This document shows positions 15,740-34,365 of a stretch of 64,000 nt of DNA, piece by piece. Positions within the stretch are counted from its first letter, which is position 1; each line of letters starts with the position of its first letter. This stretch comes from Candidatus Bathyarchaeota archaeon. GTDB lineage: Archaea > Thermoproteota > Bathyarchaeia > Bathyarchaeales > Bathycorpusculaceae. Under the pieces are notes generated by a model. That model had not been told where the DNA came from and ran no database searches. It was given only the letters and a program-made list of their open reading frames with translations. The DNA is taken from contig CAVYXJ010000010.1 of NCBI GenBank assembly GCA_963772455.1, positions 160,001-224,000 on the forward strand, given 5' to 3'. The translations under genes and the position numbers were made by a program.

Positions 15740-15886
15740 TCTTTTCTTTTTTGTTCATTTCTGTTTCTTGTTGATATCAATCTGTAATATGTTAAAAATC
15801 CCATGCTTTTTACTTAAATTTGTACTAAAAGCGTATAAACCCCTTCATAACATCTATGAGCATTTACTGCTAGAAGGGACTGAAAA

Positions 15887-17368
15887 ATAGGCTGCGGTAT
15901 CTTTGGCGCAATAAATTATGAAAAACAACCAGTTTTTCCGTATGTTTATTGGGGATTACGTGCCCAAAATCATCGAGGTCACCAGTCACACGGTTTCCTC
16001 ACAAGCAACAATAACGAGTTTTTCACGTACAAAGCCTTAGATTTGGTTCCAAGACTAAAAACAAGTGTCATTCACGAATGGTTCGGTCGCCTACCCGGAT
16101 CCATCGGCATCGGCAATGTACGGTATACAACCTCAGGCAAATGCGACGACGTCTCCATAATAGACGGGACCCAACCAGTTGTCGCCTCCGTAGACGGAAT
16201 AAAACTCGCCCTCTCCTTTAACGGTAACATCGTTAATACTTTGCCGCTCAAAAAAGAAATATGTGAAAACTTCGATGATTTCCTCTACAACTGCGACTCT
16301 GACATCGTTTGCCACAAAATGCTCCTTGCCTTAAAACAAGGTCAAGACTTATCCTCAGCCGCCCGAACAGTCATGGAAAGCTTAGACGGCGCATTCTCAG
16401 TAATTGGTATAACAGGCGATGGTCAATTCTTCGCCTTCAAAGACCCGCACGGCATAAAACCCCTGTGCGCTGGGCATGACCCCGAAACCAAGACATTTGC
16501 GTTTTCCTCCGAAACTGTGAGCTTGGACATGAACAGTTTTGTTAGAGATTTTGAGTTGGAGCCGGGTGAACTTGTTACGGTTTCAGAAAACGGTTTTAAA
16601 CGCACCCAACTTATTGAGAATCCGCGTGAAGCCTTCTGTTGTTTTGAATACGCTTATTTTGCAAGACCCGACTCGCGCTTTGACGGAAAATACGTTTATG
16701 AAATCCGAGAAGATTACGGGAGAAATCTTGTTAAAGAGTTCCCTGAAATCGTCAAGGACGGCGACATCATTATGTCTGTGCCTGAAACTGGCGATGACTC
16801 AGCCATGGGAGTTCATGAAGCTTCAGGTTTACGATGGGAACGCGCATCAAGGCGTCACCGTTATGTTACCGAACGAGCCTTTATTTTGCTTAACAATGAA
16901 CGTTACTCAACTATCGACAAAAAAATTAACATCTTAGGTAGCAAAGTTGCGGGCAAACGAGTTATAGTAACAGAAGACAGCGTTGTCCGAGGCGACACCA
17001 CCAAGGTTATCATAGAAAAACTCCGCAAGGCAGGCGCCAAGAAAGTTTACCTCTTCGTAACTTTTCCACGTATCATCGGACCTTGCTTCTATGGTATTGA
17101 CATGTCAACTTACGGGCAACTCGTCGGTTCCCGACATAATGCTGAGGAAATCGCTAAAATCATAGGTGCAGACGCCGTTTGCTATCAGTCCATTGAAGGA
17201 TTAGTACGTGCTAGTGGCCAAACTGAAGATCAGCTTTGTATGGCGTGCATTACAGGTAAGTATCCGACGCCGTGTGCGCAAAAGATGTCGGACATAATGA
17301 AGAAACGTTTCCAAGATGGATACGAAGAAAAAACAAGAATCTACGAATCCGAAGAAGCTCAGCCGTAA
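15887..17368 (+). CDS. purF: Amidophosphoribosyltransferase; N-terminus extends upstream of ORF-track call to an ATA start
   Basis: In-frame ATA GGC TGC GGT ATC TTT GGC = xGCGIFG (catalytic Cys), QNHRGHQSHG, GNVRYTTSG, CFEYAYFARPDS, EDSVVRGDT, PCFYGID, CMACITGKYP. Confidence 0.95.
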   Translation: MGCGIFGAINYEKQPVFPYVYWGLRAQNHRGHQSHGFLTSNNNEFFTYKALDLVPRLKTSVIHEWFGRLPGSIGIGNVRYTTSGKCDDVSIIDGTQPVVASVDGIKLALSFNGNIVNTLPLKKEICENFDDFLYNCDSDIVCHKMLLALKQGQDLSSAARTVMESLDGAFSVIGITGDGQFFAFKDPHGIKPLCAGHDPETKTFAFSSETVSLDMNSFVRDFELEPGELVTVSENGFKRTQLIENPREAFCCFEYAYFARPDSRFDGKYVYEIREDYGRNLVKEFPEIVKDGDIIMSVPETGDDSAMGVHEASGLRWERASRRHRYVTERAFILLNNERYSTIDKKINILGSKVAGKRVIVTEDSVVRGDTTKVIIEKLRKAGAKKVYLFVTFPRIIGPCFYGIDMSTYGQLVGSRHNAEEIAKIIGADAVCYQSIEGLVRASGQTEDQLCMACITGKYPTPCAQKMSDIMKKRFQDGYEEKTRIYESEEAQP

Positions 17369-17416
17369 TCGCTATTAAGCGTTCCCTCCAATGTCTTAGC
17401 AGATAGGTGTCTTTGG

Positions 17417-18829
17417 ATGGAAAAAATCGGTGTCCTAGTTGTTTCTTATGGCGCACGAGAAGTTGCCATGGCGGATGCTCTTCTAAGAAGCAAAAAATAC
17501 CAAGTGGAACTCTACGTCGCCGACAAACAATGCAACCCCTACAATGCTAAAAACGCAACAAAACAAGTAGTTATTCCAACCCTAGACATAAACGAAATCT
17601 GCAAGTTTGCAGAGACAAACAAAGACAAACTCGACTTTGTTATGGTTGGCTCCGAGAAACCTATAATCGAAGGAATCAGAGACCTAATCGAGAAACAAAC
17701 AGGTATACCCGTAATCTGTCCAACCAAAGAGTACGCAATTGAGGAGAGCAAGATTGCTCAGCGAATTCTTTTCGAGGAGATAGCGCCCGAAGCGAACCCA
17801 CGGTTTAAAATTTTTCATCCTTCAGATTACAAAGGCAAAGATATTCAAAAATCAGTTTATCAATGGCTGGACGAATTGGACAATCAAGCTGTGGTCAAGC
17901 CCGATAAGCCTGCATTGGGTAAAGGTGTGGGCGTTTGGGGAGACCACTTCGCAAATCGGGAGCAGCTTTTTGAGCATTTCATGTCCAACTTCAAATATGG
18001 TTCAGTTCTAATAGAAGAAAAAATTGACGGAGAAGAATCCAGTTGCATGGGCTTCTGCGACGGCAAACACTTCATTTCCCTGCCTGACACACGCGACTAC
18101 AAACGTGCCTTTGACGACGACAAGGGACCCAACACAGGTGGTATGGGTTCCTATAAAGACGTAGTCGATTACCTGCCCTTCCTCACTGCCTCTGAACGCG
18201 AACAAGAACTTGCGTTAGCTGATAGGGTTTTTAGAGGATGGAAAACAAAAATCAAAGACGACACGGCGCTAAGAGGTGTCCCACTGTACCTTGCCTTCAT
18301 GCACACAGGCAAGGGTATCAAAATCCTTGAAATCAACAGCCGCCCAGGTGACCCCGAAATCATGAACCTTCTTGCAATCATAAAAGAAGACTTCGTCGAT
18401 GTCTGCCTCAAAATGGTCAATGGAAACCTAAATGGTGTTGCAATGGAAAAGTTGGCGACAGTATTGACTTACAAGGTTCCATCAGATTATGGTGGATACG
18501 CTGATGCGTTTCCTGACAAAGTGGATAAACAAGCAGTCAACATGCCTGTTGACCTCGATAAGGCTGAGGCACTTGTCGAAAAATTCGGCGAGAAAATCCG
18601 CGTATATCCTGGCTCTATGGAGCTGCGCGATGGCAAAAACTATGCTCTCAAATCCCGAGCCATAGGTATCCTTGGCATCGGTGGAAGCATCGAGGAAGCA
18701 CGTCAAATCAGTCAGGAAGGAGCTAAAGCAATAACTGGTGGTGCGCTCTGGAACCGAACAGATGTTGCCTCAAAGCAACATATTTCTAAAAGCATTAGGC
18801 ACATGGAGCAGTTGAGGCAAAAGCCTTGA
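17417..18829 (+). CDS. purD: Phosphoribosylamine--glycine ligase
   Basis: GARE, VVKPDKPALGKGV, DYKRAFDDDKGPNTGGMGS, LEINSRPGDPE. Confidence 0.95.
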   Translation: MEKIGVLVVSYGAREVAMADALLRSKKYQVELYVADKQCNPYNAKNATKQVVIPTLDINEICKFAETNKDKLDFVMVGSEKPIIEGIRDLIEKQTGIPVICPTKEYAIEESKIAQRILFEEIAPEANPRFKIFHPSDYKGKDIQKSVYQWLDELDNQAVVKPDKPALGKGVGVWGDHFANREQLFEHFMSNFKYGSVLIEEKIDGEESSCMGFCDGKHFISLPDTRDYKRAFDDDKGPNTGGMGSYKDVVDYLPFLTASEREQELALADRVFRGWKTKIKDDTALRGVPLYLAFMHTGKGIKILEINSRPGDPEIMNLLAIIKEDFVDVCLKMVNGNLNGVAMEKLATVLTYKVPSDYGGYADAFPDKVDKQAVNMPVDLDKAEALVEKFGEKIRVYPGSMELRDGKNYALKSRAIGILGIGGSIEEARQISQEGAKAITGGALWNRTDVASKQHISKSIRHMEQLRQKP

Positions 18830-19908
18830 CCTGTATCTTTGTTTCCGACTGCGAAGGACCAATATCCAAAAATGATAATGCCTTCGAGTTAGCTGAGAAC
18901 TTTATTCCAAACGGTGACAAATTTTTCACACTCATAAGCCTCTATGATGATGTCTTGGCAGATGCAATCAAGAAACCTGGTTACACTGCGGGCAGCACTC
19001 TCAAGTTGATTTTGCCCTTCTTCAAAGCGTATGGGATAACGGACAGCCAAATGGAAGATTTCTCAACTAATAATATTCTGCTAATCGCCAACAGTAAAGC
19101 AACACTGAACTACATACAAAGAATTGCTGGCTCCTTTATCGTTAGCACAAGCTATGAACACTATATCAAAGCCTTCTGCAAAGCGGTCGATTTTCCACTC
19201 AAAAATGCGTATTGTACAAAAGTGAAACTCGACAAATGTCCCATCACACCCCAAGAAAAGGAGCGCTTAAGAGAGATGGCGCAAGAAATCGCGCAAATGC
19301 CCCCAATCGCCATTCCACCAAACGCTAAAACCATTGAGGATTTTTCAAACCGCGATCAGGCAATTATCAAGCGGTTAGATGAGATTTTTTGGAGTCTAAT
19401 TCCCAAGATGTTTGTTGGCAAGTTTCTCACAGATGTAGTTACCATTGGCGGGGAACATAAAGCCGAAGCCATTCGTGACATAGTCAAACGTTTAGGTAGT
19501 GAGCTGGAGAATGTGTTGTATGTGGGAGATAGCATAACAGATGTGGACGCATTCAAACTAGTACGCTCCAATGGTGGCTTGGTGGTCTCTTTCAACGGGA
19601 ACAGTTATGCAGTAAGGGAAGCTGACGTGGCAGTTCTGTCGGATAGTAACCTTGTTACAGCTGTGATAGCTGATTTGTTCTGTAAGTTGGGCAAAAAACA
19701 AACCCTTAAAGCTCTTGGTTTATGGAGCTATGATGTTCTTAAAAAAAATCAGATAGACGAAGTTTTACTAAAACAGTTATCAACGTTGTATCCTGATGTA
19801 TTGCCCAAAGTTCAAATAGTTACAGCCAAAAATATGGAATCACTAATAAAAGAGAGCAGCGAGTTTAGGAAGAAGGTTCGCGGAGTAGCCGTGGGGAGAC
19901 TTGGATAA
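18826..19908 (+). CDS. HAD-superfamily hydrolase, EhaR-like
   Basis: FVSDCEGPISKNDNAFEL (motif I DxE), IVSTSYEHY, YVGDSITDVDAF, SFNGNSYAV; TTGA overlap with purD stop. Confidence 0.8.
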   Translation: MTCIFVSDCEGPISKNDNAFELAENFIPNGDKFFTLISLYDDVLADAIKKPGYTAGSTLKLILPFFKAYGITDSQMEDFSTNNILLIANSKATLNYIQRIAGSFIVSTSYEHYIKAFCKAVDFPLKNAYCTKVKLDKCPITPQEKERLREMAQEIAQMPPIAIPPNAKTIEDFSNRDQAIIKRLDEIFWSLIPKMFVGKFLTDVVTIGGEHKAEAIRDIVKRLGSELENVLYVGDSITDVDAFKLVRSNGGLVVSFNGNSYAVREADVAVLSDSNLVTAVIADLFCKLGKKQTLKALGLWSYDVLKKNQIDEVLLKQLSTLYPDVLPKVQIVTAKNMESLIKESSEFRKKVRGVAVGRLG

Positions 19909-20817
19909 ATGCCTAAAGCAAAAATCGAAGACACTTATGCAGAAGCGTTCACTGGGATTTATTGTCGTGTAATCGTAACTGCGGACGACGAGCCAACGCT
20001 TCGCAAAGCCGCCGAAGACTCCACTGCAACGCCATCAGTAGTGATTGGAAGAACCGAGGGCGGTGTTGAAAAATACCTAACTCCAAGTGAAACACCAGAC
20101 AAACGCATGGGCGCTATATTGCAGTTCTGGGGAGAAATCAACCCAAAAAAAACCTTCGAGGAATCACTGAAAAAGTTTGAAACTGAACTGTCTTATCGTA
20201 TTCGCCAGGATATTCTTGTTAAACCCTTTACGGCAATTTTCGATGCAATGCCAAGGGCTGAGGGCAAGTTAGATATGATGGAGAGTGTGGGGCATTGCGG
20301 CGACGGTTACGAGTGGGTTGAGAAGCGTTATGGCAGGGAAGTCATTGTTGTTCCTTTAATGGTTCCGGACTTTATCATCGAACACTATCTTGGTTACGCG
20401 AAAGGTGTTATGGGCGGCAATTTTTGGATAATGTGCAAATCAAAAGAAGCACTCAAAGAAGCGGGCGCTAGAGCACTAAAGGCAATTCATAAAGTGTACG
20501 GGGTCGTGAACACTTTTGACATATGTTCAGCTGGCTCCAAACCAGAAACGCACTTTCCCAAAATAGGACCCACTACCAACCACCTATATTGTCCATCGCT
20601 CAAATCGCGCTTAGGTAAAGAATCCAAGGTTCCAGAAGGCGTCGGTTACATAGCCGAAGTCGTCTTCGACGGCATTTCTTTGGATGCAGTTAAAGAAGCC
20701 ACCAAAACAGGAATCAAAGCGGTTTTAGAAGTTGATGGTGTTGTGCGGGTTTCCGCCGGCAATTACGGTGGCAAACTAGGCGAATATAAAATCCAATTAA
20801 AGGAGTTATTTCCATGA
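19909..20817 (+). CDS. ftr: Formylmethanofuran:H4MPT formyltransferase homolog, divergent FtrII/EhaS-like type
   Basis: [48 protein letters not shown]; variant segments [12 protein letters not shown] and CSAGSKPET. Confidence 0.9.
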
Positions 20818-21728
20818 CAAAATTTGATGTAGTCGGTTTCGGGGCACTCAACGTTGACATGCTCTTCAAAGTCGAGCGACTTGCAACTGCGGAAGAAGAA
20901 AGCTTTATTGAAAATTACACAGAAGCTTGCGGTGGATCAGCCGCAAACACAATTGTTGGATTGGCTAGGCTTGGTTGTAAAGTCGGTTTCATAGGCAAAG
21001 TTGCTAACGACCGTGAAGGCCAAATGCAACTTGATTGCTTCCAAACAGAAGGAGTGGACACAGGCGGCATAATTGAGACAACCAAGGGAAGAAGCGGTTC
21101 GGTTATGGGTTTTGTGGACAGAAAAGGTGCAAGGGCTCTCTACATTAATTCAGGCGTCAATGACTTAGTTGAGCTTAGAGAAATTAAATATGAATACATT
21201 TCTCAAACTAAACTCCTTCATTTATCGTCCTTCGTTGGTGAAAAATCGTTCCGTGCACAAAAGAAGCTCTTAAGCGCTTTGCCTGAAGGGGTTGAAATAA
21301 GTTTTGACCCAGGTTCATTGTACGCTCAAAAAGGTTTTGCAGTCATTGAGCCTATCCTTAAGAATTCTCATGTTATGATGCCAAATGCAATTGAACTTGA
21401 ACAATTAACCGGTGAAGAAGATTACCGCAAAGGAGCTGATTTCATGATTGCTATGGGTGTTAAGATCGTGGCTGTTAAGCTTGGCAACAAAGGTTGCTAT
21501 GTAACGGACGGTAATGAAAAGCTTAGTGTAGAACCATTCAAAGTTAAAGCAATCGACACAACTGGGGCAGGCGACGCTTTCAACGCAGGCTTCCTCTATG
21601 GCTTAATCCAAAACAAAAGTCTCTATGAATGCGGTCAATTGGGCAATTTTGTAGCTTCCCGAAGCGTTATGGCAATGGGTGCCCGCGCAGGCTTACCCTA
21701 TGCTAAAGATTTAGCACTTCTTAGTTAG
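20814..21728 (+). CDS. PfkB/ribokinase-family kinase, EhaT-like
   Basis: [29 protein letters not shown]; ATGA overlap with ftr stop. Confidence 0.92.
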
Positions 21729-22529
21729 CTTGTCGATTATGCTTTGGAAGATTAGTTTTCCATCGCCATACTGGAGCATTTGTTGTTCGCGCGTCCAGTT
21801 GGGTTGTTGCCACCAATACATCGCCCTCTCAGGATGAGGCATCAACCCAAAGATGTTGCCTTCTTTGTTGCAGATTCCAGCAATGTCGTAGAATGAACCG
21901 TTAGGACAGATCGGGTACTTGCCGTCAGCGACTTTGCCATTTTTGTCGCAGTAGCGGAACACCAACATGTCCTCATCGATGAGTTTCTTTAGCAGTGCCT
22001 GCTCTTGTTCTTTTGGAAATAGTAATCGCCCTTCTCCGTGTGCGATTGGTAAGCTAATGACTTTTCCTGGTGGAATTTTGTTTGTAAATAAACATTTACC
22101 TTTGTTTTCTTGTTTGAGGTAGATCCATTCGCATTTGAAACCTGCAGGTTCATTGGTGGTCAATGTGGCTTCTGGGTAGGCGCTCAGTCCTTTGAAGCCT
22201 GGAAGCAAACCGTATTCGACTAGGATTTGGAAACCGTTACAGATGCCCAAGATTGGTCTGCCTTCATCGATGAATTTTCCCATTTCTTTGGCGAGGTTCG
22301 CGGAGAGGTGTCTTGCAAAAATCACGCCTGAACGAACATAGTCGCCGAATGAAAAGCCGCCAGGAAAAACTAGAATACTGTAATCCAGCAGGTTTCGGTG
22401 TTTGATTAACTCGTTAACATGGACAGATTCTGCTTGTACGCCTAGTTCTTGGAAGGCACGCAGGGTTTCTGCGTCGCAGTTGGTGCCGCCGACTCGCATT
22501 ACGCAGACTTTGATTTCTTCGGTGTTCAT
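21711..22529 (-). CDS. purQ: FGAM synthase glutaminase subunit
   Basis: GTNCD, PGGFSFGD, GICNGFQIL, AHGEG, MPHPER. Confidence 0.97.
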   Translation of the reverse strand: MNTEEIKVCVMRVGGTNCDAETLRAFQELGVQAESVHVNELIKHRNLLDYSILVFPGGFSFGDYVRSGVIFARHLSANLAKEMGKFIDEGRPILGICNGFQILVEYGLLPGFKGLSAYPEATLTTNEPAGFKCEWIYLKQENKGKCLFTNKIPPGKVISLPIAHGEGRLLFPKEQEQALLKKLIDEDMLVFRYCDKNGKVADGKYPICPNGSFYDIAGICNKEGNIFGLMPHPERAMYWWQQPNWTREQQMLQYGDGKLIFQSIIDKLTKKC

Positions 22530-24913
22530 TGTGGTGCCTCCTCTTGGTTTAAGGTTCTTTTCCAGTTGTGTCTTAGGTTTTCAAGCTTAGCATCAATTGC
22601 GCTTTTTCCATTCAGCCCCGTAATGAGTAGTTTTGGTTCTTTGGTTACTTTGCCGATTAAAGCGCAGTTCTTGCCTTTCATTAGAGTCTCAAAATCTTCT
22701 TTGTCTGCTTCTGCAACTTCGATTAGAAAGCGACTGTTTGATTCTGAGAACAACACAAAATCGTTTCGCGCCATTTCTTTGGCTGGCACTTTGGATAGGT
22801 TTATTTCTAAGCCGTAGTCGCTTGCAAATGCCATTTCGGCTGCTGCTACTGCTAAGCCGCCTTCCGAGAGGTCGTGGCATGATTTAATTAATCCTTCGTC
22901 AATGGCGTCAATAACTGCTCTGAAGGTGCGTTTGGCTTTTGCTCCTTTTACTTTGGGTACGTTTGCGCCAAGGTAGCCTTTGAGTTTGTAGTATTCTGAG
23001 CCGCCTAGTTCGTTGTATGTTTCCCCGATGATGTAGAGTAGGTTGCCGGGGGCTTTGAGTTCCATGGAGATGGTTGATTGAATGTTTGGAATTACGCCTA
23101 CTGCAGTGATTAGAAGTGTGGGTGTTATTGGCCCGAGGGGCGATTCATTGTATAAGCTGTCTTTTCCTGAAATGAACGGTGCCTTAAATGCCACAGAGAA
23201 GTCGAAGCATGCTTGACACGCTCTCACAAGCGATCCCAATCGCTCTGGTTTCTCGGGGTTTCCCCAAGTGAAATTGTCTAGTAGTGAGACTCTTCTTCCG
23301 CCCACTGCAACGTTGTTTCGGATTGCTTCGTCAATGGCTGAAGCTGCCATCCAATAAGCATCAATCTTGCCATAATTCGGGTTCATACCGCAAGAAATCA
23401 CTAAACCCTTCCATGAATCGTCAAGTGGTTTTAAGACGGCGGCATCGTTTGGTCCTGCGTATTCGCCTTGTAGTGGTTTGAGGGTTGTGTTGCCTTTGAC
23501 TTCATGGTCGTAAGTGCGAATTACGCTTTCTTTGCTTGCTATGTTTGGGGCTGCGAGTAGTAGGTGCAAGGTTTCAGTTAGGTTTGATGGTTCTGGGAAT
23601 TCTGGTTCGGTAAAGGTTGTTTTTTCGATGGTTGCTATTTTGCTGCTTGTGCAAGGGTTGAAGAGGAAAGTCATGTTTATGTCGCTGACGGTTTCTCCGT
23701 TGTAGGTGAGTTTTAGTTGTCTCTCTGGTGTTAGTGTTCCGATGGCTGTTGCAATAACGTCTTCTTTTTCGAAAACAGCCATGACACGCTCCAGATTCTC
23801 GCAAGGCACCGTGATTAACATGCGTTCTTGTGATTCTGATAGGTAAATTTCCCATGGTGCCAAATCCGGATGCTTCAAGGGTACTTTAGCTAAATCTGCG
23901 ATTACTCCGCAGTTAAAGCGTTCTGCTGTTTCGCCAACTGCTGAAGATAAGCCTCCGCCGCCAATGTCAGTCACTGCTGAAGCGAGTTGTAGGTCGCGGA
24001 TCTCTATTATTGCTCGTTTAACTTTTTCTTCTTCTATAGGGTCTGCTATTTGGACTGCTGGGCGCGAGACTGTTTCCGATTTCTCGGTTAATTCTGCGGA
24101 TGCGAAGGTTACTCCGTGGATGCCGTCGCGTCCGGTTTTTCCGCCTGCTAAAACTACTATGTCGCCGACTTTAGCGTTTTTTGCATATTTGTTTAGAGGT
24201 AAAAGTCCAATGCAGCCGCAGTATACTGTGACGTTGCCTGTGTAGGATTCGTCGAAGTATATTGCGCCGTTTACGGTTGGGATGCCCATGTTGTTGCCGT
24301 AGGCGCTGATGCCTGCGGTGACACCCATATAAACGTATTTTGGATGTTTAACGCCTGCAGGAAGCTTCTTGTAATCGTAATCTAAAGGTCCAAAACCTAA
24401 GACGTCAGTGCAAGCGATTGGGTCAGCCCATACGCCTAGTATGTCGCGTATAACGCCACCAACTCCTGTTGCTGCGCCGCCAAATGGCTCAATCGCAGAT
24501 GGATGGTTGTGAGTTTCAACTTTTGCTGCTATGCCAAAACCCTTGTCAAACTTGACGATTCCCGCATTGTCTTCAAATACACTTACACACCAAGGTGCTT
24601 TGATTTGTTTGGTGGCTTTTGCAATGTATGTTTTGAAGAGACTGTCGATTTCTTTACCATCGATTTGGATTTTTCCTTTGAAGGTTTTGTGGCAACAGTG
24701 CTCTGACCATGTTTGGCTAATGGTTTGTAGTTCTAAATCAGTCGGATTTCTTTTTTCTTCTTTAAAATAAGCTTGGATGTTGCATAGTTCTTGTTGGCTA
24801 AAACCCAAGGATAATTCGCTGTTGAATTCGGCAAGTTGTTCTTGGGTAGCTTTTGCTATAGCAACTTCTAAAACTGGGCTGGTTTTGCGTTGGGTGTAGA
24901 GGTTAGCGTTCAT
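22526..24913 (-). CDS. purL: FGAM synthase large subunit
   Basis: WSEHCCHK, KVETHNHPSAIEPFGGAATGVGG, GRDGIHG, LSESQERM, SGKDSLYN, HDLSEGGL. Confidence 0.98.
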   Translation of the reverse strand: MNANLYTQRKTSPVLEVAIAKATQEQLAEFNSELSLGFSQQELCNIQAYFKEEKRNPTDLELQTISQTWSEHCCHKTFKGKIQIDGKEIDSLFKTYIAKATKQIKAPWCVSVFEDNAGIVKFDKGFGIAAKVETHNHPSAIEPFGGAATGVGGVIRDILGVWADPIACTDVLGFGPLDYDYKKLPAGVKHPKYVYMGVTAGISAYGNNMGIPTVNGAIYFDESYTGNVTVYCGCIGLLPLNKYAKNAKVGDIVVLAGGKTGRDGIHGVTFASAELTEKSETVSRPAVQIADPIEEEKVKRAIIEIRDLQLASAVTDIGGGGLSSAVGETAERFNCGVIADLAKVPLKHPDLAPWEIYLSESQERMLITVPCENLERVMAVFEKEDVIATAIGTLTPERQLKLTYNGETVSDINMTFLFNPCTSSKIATIEKTTFTEPEFPEPSNLTETLHLLLAAPNIASKESVIRTYDHEVKGNTTLKPLQGEYAGPNDAAVLKPLDDSWKGLVISCGMNPNYGKIDAYWMAASAIDEAIRNNVAVGGRRVSLLDNFTWGNPEKPERLGSLVRACQACFDFSVAFKAPFISGKDSLYNESPLGPITPTLLITAVGVIPNIQSTISMELKAPGNLLYIIGETYNELGGSEYYKLKGYLGANVPKVKGAKAKRTFRAVIDAIDEGLIKSCHDLSEGGLAVAAAEMAFASDYGLEINLSKVPAKEMARNDFVLFSESNSRFLIEVAEADKEDFETLMKGKNCALIGKVTKEPKLLITGLNGKSAIDAKLENLRHNWKRTLNQEEAPQ

Positions 24914-25161
24914 TTAATTTCAACAACGCTTATAGTGTAGTTGTCTTTGGTTGGGTTTGCCAAAAGACGTTTGCTCATATCTTCTGCCTTCGCTTTGGCT
25001 TCAGTTAGCGTTGATGCATCAAGAGTCACGGTGTAGACTTTGCTTACGTCGACCGCTTGAACCTTGTAGCCGAGTTCCACAAGTAAACGTGCAGTTGTTT
25101 CGCCTTCCGGGTTGCTATGTCCGGGTTTGAGGCTGACTTCAATTTTGGCAGCGTATTTCAT
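24910..25161 (-). CDS. purS: FGAM synthase PurS subunit
   Basis: LKPGHSNPEG, RLLANP; overlaps purL start. Confidence 0.93.
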   Translation of the reverse strand: MKYAAKIEVSLKPGHSNPEGETTARLLVELGYKVQAVDVSKVYTVTLDASTLTEAKAKAEDMSKRLLANPTKDNYTISVVEIK

Positions 25162-25218
25162 AAGCCACTAAATTATGATTTGGAATTTAAACGCTTTCGT
25201 AAAGAAAAAAGCAATACT

Positions 25219-26301
25219 TTATGTGAAAATCATATGTTTGGTCTTGTAATCTATTTCCACGACTTTTTGTTTGTTAGTTATCTTGCCGATAATCTCAGGG
25301 TTCTCGCCAGCGTGCTTTAGAGTGTTTAATGTGTTCTCAATATCTGCCTTGTTAACCACAATGGCAAATCCCCAGCCCATGTTAAAGGTCTTAAACATCT
25401 CCTCATCAGATATTATAAATCCCAGATCAGCCGCGGTTTTCTGGATTAATCCAAATATTGGATGCGGCTTGAAATTGTTGAATTCAAAACCGATGCCTGG
25501 AGAGTAGTTGGCAAGGTTATTGAATTTCAAGTAAGCATCGCCCGTAATGTGGACAGCTCCCTTAATTTTGACTTCTTGAGCAAGTTTTAAGAAAGGTTTA
25601 ACGTAGATTTTCGTGGGTTTCAAAACCTCAAGAACCACTTCCCTGTCTATCCCTTCTGGGATGTCGTAGGGTGAGTATTTTCCGCCCCATTGTTTGAAGA
25701 GGATTTTTCTTGCAAGTGTGATAGCGTTGCTGTGCAAGCCGCTGCTGGGCAAACCGATAATTGGGTCTTCCGGCTTGATGTTTTCGCCAGTGATGATTTT
25801 TTTGCGTTCAACACTGCCGACCGAAGAGACAACCATATCGAACCCTGCGTTTTCCGATAAGCCCTTGATTAATTCAGCTACGTCTCCTGTTTCGCCACCT
25901 GTAACTGGGCATTCGGATTCGTGCGCGCCTTGGATGATGCCTTTTAGCCACTCGTTTACTAATGTGGGTTCGCTGGCCTGCGCATGAATGTTATCCGCTA
26001 CGGAAAGAGGTTTGGCGCCAGAGCGAATCACATCATTAACAGCCATCGCAACAGCGTCTACACCTATTGTGTCGTATTTTTGTGCTAGTTGAGCAACAAG
26101 AACTTTGGTGCCTACACCTTCAATTACTAAATCCAAAAAAGTGTTCTCGCCGATTGGAAAAATGTTTCCGTAAGGTAGATGCATTACACCGCTAAAGAGG
26201 CTGTGCTGGTAGGTTTCCTGCAGATTCTTAAGTTGTTTTTTGGATTCTACGCGTTGTTTGCGATTTACTCCTGCATCCTCGTAAGTGTAGTTTTTGGGCA
26301 C
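25219..26301 (-). CDS. purM: AIR synthetase
   Basis: TYEDAGV, EGVGTK, AMAVND, GGETG, SSGLHSN, HITG, TFNMGWG. Confidence 0.96.
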   Translation of the reverse strand: MPKNYTYEDAGVNRKQRVESKKQLKNLQETYQHSLFSGVMHLPYGNIFPIGENTFLDLVIEGVGTKVLVAQLAQKYDTIGVDAVAMAVNDVIRSGAKPLSVADNIHAQASEPTLVNEWLKGIIQGAHESECPVTGGETGDVAELIKGLSENAGFDMVVSSVGSVERKKIITGENIKPEDPIIGLPSSGLHSNAITLARKILFKQWGGKYSPYDIPEGIDREVVLEVLKPTKIYVKPFLKLAQEVKIKGAVHITGDAYLKFNNLANYSPGIGFEFNNFKPHPIFGLIQKTAADLGFIISDEEMFKTFNMGWGFAIVVNKADIENTLNTLKHAGENPEIIGKITNKQKVVEIDYKTKHMIFT

Positions 26302-26415
26302 GAGCTTGTTTCTCCTTGCACGCTAAATGTGTAGGTTTCTGTCTGATAACGATTTTGTTTGCAAAAACCCAAAAAGGTTTTTGTGCTCAGAATGATTGAT
26401 TAGCCATTGATCTTC

Positions 26416-27252
26416 GTGCAAACAACTCCCAAATACCACATCTATGTAGAATACGTTGAACCAGACAAATCAGGCATCAGATTCAATGTTCCCCAAGAAG
26501 AACTTGTGCGCACTTTCTCCTCCCCCTACACCATGGGGCAACCTTTCTGGTTTTTGGGCAAACTTCTCAACCCCAACAAAGTAACTAAAGTTGTCATATT
26601 CTGGTCCTACCAAACAGCCGACAAACTAAAACTTCCAAACCAAGAAAATCTTGTAGCCGCCAAAGACAAAAAATACCTAATCGAAAATATACTCAAAGGC
26701 AAAGTCAAAGGCGCTTACCTGTGCACTGAAAAATTCTTATCTTCAACCGAAAAAACCACGGCTCCCTCTAAACAGTCAATATCTGGATCGGATGTTAGGC
26801 GAAGGGTTTTCGTAGTCTGCGGCACAGATGGCGAGATGAAGCAAGCTGTCACTATTTCCTTAACCAGACTCAAACTTGTACCGATAGTTGTGTGTGAAGA
26901 GCCAAGTCAAGGTAAAAAAATCGTTGAACGATTCCAAGAGTATTCCGATGTTGGTTTTGCGGTAGTTTTGCTTTCGCCGGATGATTGCGTATACGTTAAA
27001 GATGAACCGCCCACAAAACGCACGCTAAGACCTAGGCAAGACGTGATTTTTGAGCTTGGTTTCCTTTTAGGAAAACTTGGTAAGAATAACGTACTTGTCT
27101 TCTTCAGAGAGTGCGCAAACTTTGAAATTCCCACAGATTTTGAAGGTATAAAAATCGCTGCGTTCGATAATCGTGATAGCTGGAAGCTTGCACTCATTCG
27201 TGAACTAACAAACTGTGGATACGATTTCGACGCTAATAGTCTCGAAAAGTAG
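26416..27252 (+). CDS. TIR-like (CAP12/Pycsar effector-type) nucleotide-binding protein with unknown N-terminal domain
   Basis: VFVVCGTD, FAVVLLSPDD, RPRQDVIFELGFLLGKLG, EIPTDFEG. Confidence 0.8.
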   Translation: MQTTPKYHIYVEYVEPDKSGIRFNVPQEELVRTFSSPYTMGQPFWFLGKLLNPNKVTKVVIFWSYQTADKLKLPNQENLVAAKDKKYLIENILKGKVKGAYLCTEKFLSSTEKTTAPSKQSISGSDVRRRVFVVCGTDGEMKQAVTISLTRLKLVPIVVCEEPSQGKKIVERFQEYSDVGFAVVLLSPDDCVYVKDEPPTKRTLRPRQDVIFELGFLLGKLGKNNVLVFFRECANFEIPTDFEGIKIAAFDNRDSWKLALIRELTNCGYDFDANSLEK

Positions 27253-34289: not shown

Positions 34290-34365
34290 GCGGTTGTAGT
34301 CTAGTTCGGTAGGACTGCAGCTTCCCAAGCTGTCGACTCGGGTTCAAATCCCGGCAACCGCACCA
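34290..34365 (+). tRNA. tRNA-Gly (CCC), intronless, CCA encoded
   Basis: GCGGTTG/CAACCGC acceptor stem, GCAGC-TTCCCAA-GCTGT anticodon arm, CGGG-TTCAAAT-CCCG T arm, ACCA end. Confidence 0.96.

Follow-up and report, generated by a model that had tools for sequence, protein, structure and literature searches.

How is glycinamide ribonucleotide (GAR) converted to formylglycinamide ribonucleotide (FGAR) in archaea that carry one-carbon units on tetrahydromethanopterin (H4MPT) and methanofuran, and not on folate? The question is raised by a DNA stretch of 64,000 nucleotides from a Candidatus Bathyarchaeota archaeon (assembly GCA_963772455.1, contig CAVYXJ010000010.1, positions 160,001 to 224,000; the window in the following). 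Its purine cluster encodes steps 1, 2, 4 and 5 of the pathway, and the position after purD is taken by three genes coding for a HAD-superfamily phosphatase-like protein (HAD), a divergent paralog of the formyltransferase Ftr (Ftr2, named as in PMC9012536) and a PfkB-family kinase (PfkB). On the evidence of sequence, this module quite probably supplies step 3, the reaction otherwise catalyzed by PurN or PurT, with Ftr2 as the formyltransferase. The assignment draws on gene order, on the protein families and their conserved catalytic residues, on a distribution complementary to that of PurN and PurT, and on a swap of the formyl-donor part of the module in several genomes.

Gene order and occurrence of the module

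The module lies on the forward strand and consists of HAD (18826..19908, 360 aa, AF1437- or EhaR-like, the proposed GAR 5'-phosphatase), Ftr2 (19909..20817, 302 aa, the proposed step-3 formyltransferase) and PfkB (20814..21728, 304 aa, the proposed (formyl)glycinamide riboside 5'-kinase). Gene calls are based on a listing of open reading frames (ORFs) and on Pfam and NCBIfam family scans of the window; both bear out the run purF-purD-HAD-ftr-pfkB on one strand that had been described in the original prediction. The coupled junctions claimed from purD onward are likewise all three present in the sequence. At TTGA (18826-18829) the start codon TTG of HAD overlaps the stop codon TGA of purD, HAD and Ftr2 abut as TAA followed by ATG (19906-19911), and Ftr2 and PfkB share ATGA (20814-20817).

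The absence of purN and purT from the window extends to the whole genome (24 contigs, 92.4% complete). A profile search of this assembly gives zero matches to Formyl_trans_N, and the PurT model TIGR01142 yields only ATP-grasp matches of at most 44 bits (cut-off 502), none of which qualifies as a full-length PurT. There is no match to PurH in the genome, and none above cut-off to FTHFS (a single match of 17.8 bits). The genome carries purF, purD, purL/S/Q and purM, together with two adjacent genes for PurP-like ATP-grasp proteins. Formylmethanofuran and formyl-H4MPT should be available, since FwdA (800 bits), an ordinary Ftr (Ftr1) and methenyl-H4MPT cyclohydrolase (Mch) are present. The only match to Mch, on contig 13 (59089-60028; loci L152 and L153), extends over two reading frames and is interrupted by a stop; it may be a pseudogene or result from a frameshift or an assembly error.

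The occurrence of the module was surveyed in 201 Bathyarchaeia genomes, each at least 80% complete, with PurT-like proteins called at E <= 1e-40, PurD at E <= 1e-20, HAD by an alignment profile and Ftr2 by the window protein as query. The scores of the latter are bimodal: 74 genomes have matches of at least 272 bits and at least 51% identity, and one more has a 68%-identical fragment (together 75 of 201), while Ftr1 proteins match the same query with at most 210 bits and 45% identity. A PF00551 match, counted as the PurN option, is found in 89 of the 201 genomes, a PurT-like protein in 12 and PurD in 165. HAD is encoded in 82 genomes, namely the 75 with Ftr2, two contig-end cases and five with a PurN-like variant described below. 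No surveyed genome combines HAD with a PurT-like protein or with a Formyl_trans_N match other than the module's own, apart from the two overlaps with Ftr2 described below (G130 and G001). By hand tally, the 165 PurD-positive genomes comprise 72 with Ftr2, 77 with PF00551 only, 11 with a PurT-like protein only and five with none of the three options; in two of these five (G153, G193) the contigs stop right after purD-HAD.

A co-occurrence of the module with purN or purT in most genomes, which the original prediction had named among the findings that would speak against it, is not seen: any PF00551 or PurT-like match is confined to 2 of the 75 Ftr2 genomes. One of the two, G130, encodes Ftr2 as well as a 279-aa PF00551 formyltransferase-like protein, and a tblastn search with the pur proteins of the window finds none of them in the 6 kb around. 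The PurT-like match of the other, G001, was rejected as a PurT, as the protein carries a PurK_C domain and hence is PurK. Three Ftr2 genomes are without a PurD match: G063 is fragmentary, G031 has a different bona fide PurD beside the module, and G052 has none within 10 kb. Nine genomes (family codes f10, f14, f16 and f19) lack all three options and also lack PurD. Within the single family code f11, the module is found in two genomes, a PurT-like protein in seven, PurN in one and none of these in one.

The linkage to purine genes is conserved as well, as the synteny of purD-HAD-Ftr2-PfkB holds over 13 family codes. Around Ftr2, 20 loci from these codes were compared, and 15 of them have the four genes contiguous on one strand. 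Of the remaining five, two have PfkB at a distance of 1-3 kb, one has PfkB-Ftr2 oriented divergently to purD-HAD, one has Ftr2-PfkB and purD-HAD 16 kb apart on a common contig, and one is without purD. A scan of species genomes with the HAD profile gave 552 relatives. Among the best 80 (75 from Bathyarchaeota/Bathyarchaeia-type genomes, the others named 'uncultured archaeon', Nitrososphaerota or Thorarchaeota), the full four-gene run is found in 71 loci; six loci are cut by contig ends, and in three (L090, L101, L103) HAD is not followed by Ftr2-PfkB, two of these with purD upstream of HAD. The module adjoins two different types of PurD, the second and more canonical type in locus L025. In family codes f7, f11 and f13, the identity to the window is 50-65% for purD, HAD and Ftr2, compared with 34-41% for purF, purL, purM and purQ. 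This difference suggests that the block moves as a unit.

A different composition of the module is found in five genomes of family codes f8 (G002, G010, G034) and f21 (G028, G124), which encode HAD without Ftr2. The place of Ftr2 after purD is taken there by a 278-330-aa protein whose match to Formyl_trans_N is limited to the core of the domain (42-66 bits, model positions 32-173). Every one of the best PDB relatives of this PurN-like protein (FT in the following gene orders) is a GAR transformylase, E. coli PurN ranking first. The Asn/His and Asp motifs of PurN are retained and read NLHP and LDEGP. G034 and G028 have the genes in the order purF-purD-FT-HAD-PfkB-FolD, as does G124 across two contigs; G010 and G002 have them in two separate blocks, purF-purD-FT and HAD..PfkB-FolD. 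Other members of f21 have HAD-Ftr2-PfkB at the same location, and the five genomes show no other PF00551 or PurT match. Since Ftr2 is replaced by the PurN-like protein and FolD while HAD and PfkB stay, the part that sets the one-carbon carrier is exchangeable, and HAD plus PfkB are constant. Such a pattern is expected if HAD and PfkB act on the acceptor and the formyltransferase on the donor. The swap therefore lends indirect support to a mechanism of dephosphorylation, formylation and rephosphorylation. Trees of HAD and of PfkB show no clean split between the two module types.

Relatives of the PurN-like protein with about 50-57% identity carry the source names Thermoplasmata, Thermodesulfobacteriota, Latescibacteria and Aerophobetes. 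In a metagenome sample consisting of the best 80 loci around such relatives, a HAD homolog follows the PurN-like gene in 61, and in 36 of 43 when only loci with 2.5 kb or more of downstream sequence are counted; PfkB lies just upstream or downstream of the PurN-like gene in 38 of the 80. On one bacterial metagenome contig, a gene for a 217-aa PHP-domain (phosphoesterase) protein (L198:7348-8001) directly adjoins the PurN-like gene at its start, with HAD and PfkB following; a like-sized gene, judged by size alone, occupies the same position in L192, L185, L217, L210 and L232. The PHP-domain gene is a possible fourth partner of PurN-like, HAD and PfkB genes.

The three proteins and their neighbours in the window

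Ftr2 has the two-lobe architecture of its family (FTR, PF01913, 150 bits; FTR_C, PF02741, 180 bits). It is one of two Ftr proteins of the genome; the other, the canonical Ftr1 whose existence the original prediction had left to be looked for, is encoded on contig 7. Ftr1 matches the Archaeoglobus fulgidus Ftr (PDB 1m5h) with 298 bits, Ftr2 with 179 bits. Ftr2 exceeds the cut-off of the subfamily model NF002554 (335 bits, cut-off 297) and stays below that of TIGR03119, the equivalog model of the characterized enzyme (236 bits, cut-off 292.6). In a comparison of 21 Ftr2 and 21 Ftr1 sequences, all from Bathyarchaeia, the two groups are split with a support of 1.0 and a branch of 0.96 substitutions per site, and Ftr2 does not group with characterized Ftr, in agreement with the expected separation from the canonical catabolic enzyme. 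Both groups share 58 invariant positions, 18 further positions are conserved within but switched between them, and Ftr2 carries a 9-residue insertion and has lost a 'PGG' relative to Ftr1. The window protein reaches 47% identity at most with the 21 Ftr1 sequences, and roughly 40% or less with characterized Ftr. The glutamate of 'IAEVV' (E250), invariant in 18 Ftr2 sequences, aligns with that of 'VYEIV' in Ftr structures of the PDB; in FhcD it is the protonated Glu252 that stabilizes the oxyanion (PMC6926001). Because of the split into clades, the switched positions and the retained glutamate, Ftr2 is regarded as a divergent and probably catalytically competent paralog.

One genome (G183, L120:6755-8551) harbors an in-frame fusion of Ftr2 and PfkB of 598 aa, in which the Ftr2 stop is lost (...LKELLL-MTFDVVGFG...), possibly by an assembly error. 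A search for other, longer fused forms of Ftr2 returned only one 559-aa protein, which is unrelated. In genome G035 the Ftr2 gene (L020:7853-8755) contains one in-frame TAA.

HAD does not fall into any named characterized subfamily, as its matches to HAD families of Pfam are weak and all NCBIfam matches are at most 26 bits, far below the cut-offs. The only close solved relative is AF1437 (PDB 1y8a, 106 bits over residues 4-296). Motifs I-IV of the superfamily are recognizable in an alignment of 15 sequences, namely D8-x-E10-G-P (D8 conserved to at least 90%), S107/T108, K212 and G234-D235-S-I-T-D239, with S107/T108, K212 and D235/D239 invariant; motif I reads D-x-E instead of D-x-D. In genome G052 (L026:7693-9507), HAD is part of a 604-aa frame, with matches to FAD/NAD-binding and 4Fe-4S motifs in the N-terminal ~180 residues. 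Two genes upstream of this frame, one ferredoxin-like and one FMN-reductase-like, recall the redox context of eha.

PfkB matches PF00294 with 175 bits and is below the cut-off of every NCBIfam equivalog, including ribokinase (TIGR02152, 175 bits, cut-off 300). Its GGSAANT aligns to GGKGANQ of ribokinases in the PDB, so that the ribose-binding signature is missing, and by sequence the protein is not a canonical ribokinase. The N-x-D motif and the GAGD anion hole are kept; D248-T-T250-G-A-G-D254 is invariant in 18 sequences except for the second Thr. It is known that kinases of the PfkB family phosphorylate the 5'-OH of ribosides that are purine intermediates: adenosine kinase acts on aminoimidazole carboxamide (AICA) riboside, and the aminoimidazole riboside kinase of Salmonella is a PfkB-family riboside kinase. 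HAD phosphatases work mid-pathway in riboflavin synthesis.

The remaining genes of the cluster are those of the known pathway. purF (15887..17368, forward strand; TIGR01134 299 bits, GATase_7) encodes the amidophosphoribosyltransferase of step 1. The start at 15887 stands only in part, as the frame does extend to this position but the codon is ATA, two codons ahead of the catalytic Cys (TGA AAA ATA GGC TGC at 15881-15895). The ORF listed with a TTG start covers 16043-17368 on the forward strand, and its frame is open from 15884, after an in-frame TGA at 15881-15883. At the homologous position many close relatives also have ATA, sometimes ACG, and more distant ones ATG; purF therefore probably starts at a near-cognate ATA codon. 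purD (17417..18829, forward strand; GARS_N/A/C) encodes the GAR synthetase of step 2 in a long form of 470 aa and scores 233 bits with TIGR00877, below the cut-off of 288. This long type (at least 486 bits to the window PurD) occurs not only in Ftr2 genomes but in some further ones too. It was rejected as a specific component of the module, since it also occurs without HAD in f15 and part of f18 and since a second type adjoins the module in L025. The run converges, as claimed, on four genes of the reverse strand: purQ (21711..22529; step 4, glutaminase subunit; NF002252 316 bits), purL (22526..24913; step 4; TIGR01736 678 bits), purS (24910..25161; step 4; TIGR00302 68 bits) and purM (25219..26301; step 5; TIGR00878 253 bits). 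Adjoining purM, a 281-aa protein with a CAP12/Pycsar-type TIR domain (26407-27252, forward strand; PF10137 90 bits, weak Cap12 NCBIfam matches) is possibly a defence effector. The sole Rfam match of the window at gathering threshold is a tRNA gene (34290-34362, forward strand).

A proposed route from GAR to FGAR and its alternatives

On balance we favor a statement that joins both halves of the proposal: HAD, Ftr2 and PfkB would together replace PurN or PurT, probably by dephosphorylating, formylating and rephosphorylating the intermediate. Of the computational checks that the original prediction had set for itself, none speaks against it. The GAR made by PurD would lose its 5'-phosphate to HAD, the resulting glycinamide riboside would be formylated by Ftr2 at the glycinamide amine, and PfkB would restore the 5'-phosphate with ATP, providing FGAR for PurL/PurS/PurQ. 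The order of these steps would mirror the gene order purD, HAD, Ftr2, PfkB. The specific shuttle of phosphatase, formyltransferase and kinase, taken for itself, is put forward tentatively. A GAR-derived acceptor would take the place of the aminomethyl group of methanofuran in the ordinary Ftr reaction. The donor would most likely be N5-formyl-H4MPT, otherwise formylmethanofuran; the former is preferred because the acceptor amine would stand in for the aminomethyl group of methanofuran and because the swap partner uses pterin-bound formyl-tetrahydrofolate. According to PMC3261824, N10-formyl-H4MPT is not regarded as a donor of formyl groups. The net extra cost of the route would be one ATP, equal to that of PurT, which could lend direction to an otherwise near-isoenergetic formyl transfer (4.4 kJ/mol for the Ftr reaction; PMC6926001).

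Several points weigh against this proposal. The substrates, the formyl donor and the order of dephosphorylation and rephosphorylation are deduced, and the cycle of phosphatase and kinase costs ATP, a price for which the thermodynamic argument gives no reason in the folate variant. In the PurN-like protein the phosphate-binding loop reads GRD where PurN has G-S-N/D, which does not imply a loss of phosphate binding. Three genomes (G050, G041, G095) are PurD-positive exceptions without Ftr2, PF00551 or PurT-like protein. The counts refer to genomes, which are related and not independent, and thus do not represent independent switches on a tree. Many PF00551 matches counted as PurN score only 55-93 bits and may not be PurN, chiefly in f18, where 47 of the 50 genomes have a match; in two sampled genomes these proteins show no linkage to pur genes. 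Further, ANME-2a and ANME-2b are reported with both Ftr2 and PurN in PMC9012536, so that the exclusivity of the two is not absolute outside Bathyarchaeia. Finally, the likeness to EhaR, EhaS and EhaT discussed below derives from published annotations and a lead from a language-model atlas.

If the phosphatase and the kinase were accessory, for example in recycling dephosphorylated intermediates or in regulating flux, Ftr2 could formylate GAR itself at the nucleotide level. This is a rather unlikely alternative, although the transfer from formyl-H4MPT or formylmethanofuran to a primary amine should be near isoenergetic (see the value from PMC6926001 above) and an ATP-driven cycle is therefore not strictly needed; moreover GAR itself is the substrate of PurN, whose catalytic residues are conserved in the PurN-like replacement. 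An accessory role does not predict the strict coupling of HAD, Ftr2 and PfkB: HAD is present in 75 of 75 Ftr2 genomes and in all five genomes with the PurN-like variant, is not found with PurT-like or other Formyl_trans_N proteins, is joined to its neighbors by overlapping or abutting start and stop codons from purD through PfkB, and follows the PurN-like gene in most of the metagenome loci (61 of 80). HAD and PfkB would be left without a role if Ftr2 were to formylate free glycine, which also has a CH2-NH2 group, with PurD ligating N-formylglycine to phosphoribosylamine and so giving FGAR directly. We consider this reading very improbable. It would account for purD as a constant neighbor and for the distinct long PurD that accompanies the module in f7, f11 and f13, but the module is also found beside the second, more canonical PurD (L025), and the long type exists in f15 and part of f18 without HAD or Ftr2.

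Slightly less probable than a direct formylation of GAR, and likewise unlikely, is a function of the trio on another ribosyl compound, perhaps a cofactor or an intermediate of salvage; GAR would then be formylated by an enzyme yet to be recognized, for instance one of the two PurP-like ATP-grasp proteins using formate. The two adjacent PurP-like genes of the genome fit this idea, as does the unproven function of the PurP-like 'cluster II' noted in PMC3261824, where both PurP-like clusters are, however, also listed for archaea with PurT or PurN. In addition, a pur gene is adjacent in only 4 of the 80 metagenome loci with the PurN-like gene, and some of these contigs are bacterial with housekeeping neighbors (EF-P, peptidase). 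Against it, the module is complementary to PurN and PurT among PurD-positive genomes and absent where PurD is not found, with the three exceptions G063, G031 and G052; it directly follows purD over 13 family codes and beside two PurD types, and the best solved relatives of its replacement enzyme are all GAR transformylases. About 90 of the surveyed genomes have Ftr1 without Ftr2 or HAD, hence the module is not needed for the metabolism of H4MPT and methanofuran as such. The most improbable reading of all sees in Ftr2 no more than a second catabolic Ftr of the Wood-Ljungdahl pathway, placed among unrelated neighbors. Passing NF002554 and the annotation as Ftr in public records agree with it, but not the separate long-branch clade with its switched positions, insertion and deletion, the score below the equivalog cut-off of TIGR03119, the presence of HAD in every Ftr2 genome, the conserved linkage to pur genes and the displacement in place by a PurN-like enzyme.

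A supply of ribose phosphate or phosphoribosyl pyrophosphate by HAD and PfkB was also considered and rejected for HAD, which is absent from genomes with a PurT-like protein or a Formyl_trans_N protein outside the module.

Relation to known systems

The gap addressed by the proposed replacement of PurN and PurT has been noted since 2011. PMC3261824 reports no PurN or PurT in two Archaeoglobi, in M. kandleri and in four species that it calls 'Methanomicrobiales' but that belong, by their names, to Methanobacteriales; it describes the GAR formyltransferase of these groups as unidentified, in agreement with the lack that the original prediction had named for Methanobacteria, Methanopyrus and Archaeoglobi. 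The gap was noted again in 2022 and then included ANME-1 (PMC9012536); these organisms make purines without folate. One part of PMC9012536 describes the Ftr2 clade in ANME-1, ANME-2a/b, Archaeoglobales, M. kandleri and M. marburgensis (Methanothermobacter), and a separate section describes ANME-1, Archaeoglobales and Methanobacteriales without PurN and PurT; the two points are not joined in these passages. In the literature we found no paper that ties Ftr2 or EhaS, HAD and PfkB to the formylation of GAR, or that describes a microbial route via glycinamide riboside.

If the proposal holds, the long-missing archaeal GAR formyltransferase would be identified and a gap that dates back to 2011 or earlier would be closed. 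The common labelling of Ftr2 as a catabolic formyltransferase would need correction, as would metabolic reconstructions in which a second ftr is treated as redundancy of the Wood-Ljungdahl pathway. EhaR, EhaS and EhaT would be re-assigned from hydrogenase subunits to purine enzymes, explaining the odd tail of the eha operon and tying the anaplerotic Eha hydrogenase to a drain of formyl groups into purines. Likewise, a so far unrecognized trio of PurN-like protein, HAD and PfkB in bacteria and Thermoplasmatota would be exposed. In a wider and tentative version, which we regard as possible, HAD and PfkB would bracket an interchangeable formyltransferase in a widespread third form of step 3 that proceeds via intermediates at the nucleoside level. 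The formyltransferase would be either the Ftr paralog with formyl-H4MPT or formylmethanofuran (in folate-free archaea, namely Bathyarchaeia and, by the literature, Methanobacteria, Methanopyrus, Archaeoglobi and ANME-1) or the long PurN-like enzyme with formyl-tetrahydrofolate (in Thermoplasmatota and several bacterial phyla). With a candidate of three genes, the question of step 3 becomes directly testable.

Compared with known systems, the module consists of known families with unassigned functions that would form a variant of a known pathway step. PurN and PurT fill the same slot of the pathway, and the module follows purD where neither of them is found. Their fold is unrelated to that of Ftr2, which has no Formyl_trans_N domain with its Asn/His/Asp triad. 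The proposed route would require two extra enzymes and an intermediate at the nucleoside level, which are not known as requirements of PurN or PurT. The solved Ftr enzymes (PDB 1ftr, 1m5h and 1m5s; FhcD, 6s6y) belong to the same two-lobe FTR/FTR_C fold family as Ftr2, with which they have the oxyanion glutamate and the 58 invariant positions in common, whereas Ftr2 is located among purine genes and not genes of one-carbon catabolism, and forms a divergent clade beside the canonical Ftr1. HAD shares the motifs D-x-E-G-P, STSY, GDSIxD and FNGNxYA with AF1437 of A. fulgidus, a 'hypothetical protein' whose PDB entry has no assigned function, and PfkB has the fold, the N-x-D motif and the GAGD of PfkB riboside kinases, its own substrate being the one proposed above. 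The closest parallel for the set as a whole would be the end of the Methanothermobacter eha operon, for which the original prediction had named the same three families. This holds for EhaS and EhaT, which are described as Ftr-like and ribokinase-like in PMC3087415; for EhaR there is a lead only, as a cluster of this name is among the nearest to HAD in the language-model atlas (score 0.97). EhaR, EhaS and EhaT differ from the module in that they are encoded in a hydrogenase operon and not in a pur cluster, and they have been interpreted there as subunits of the hydrogenase.

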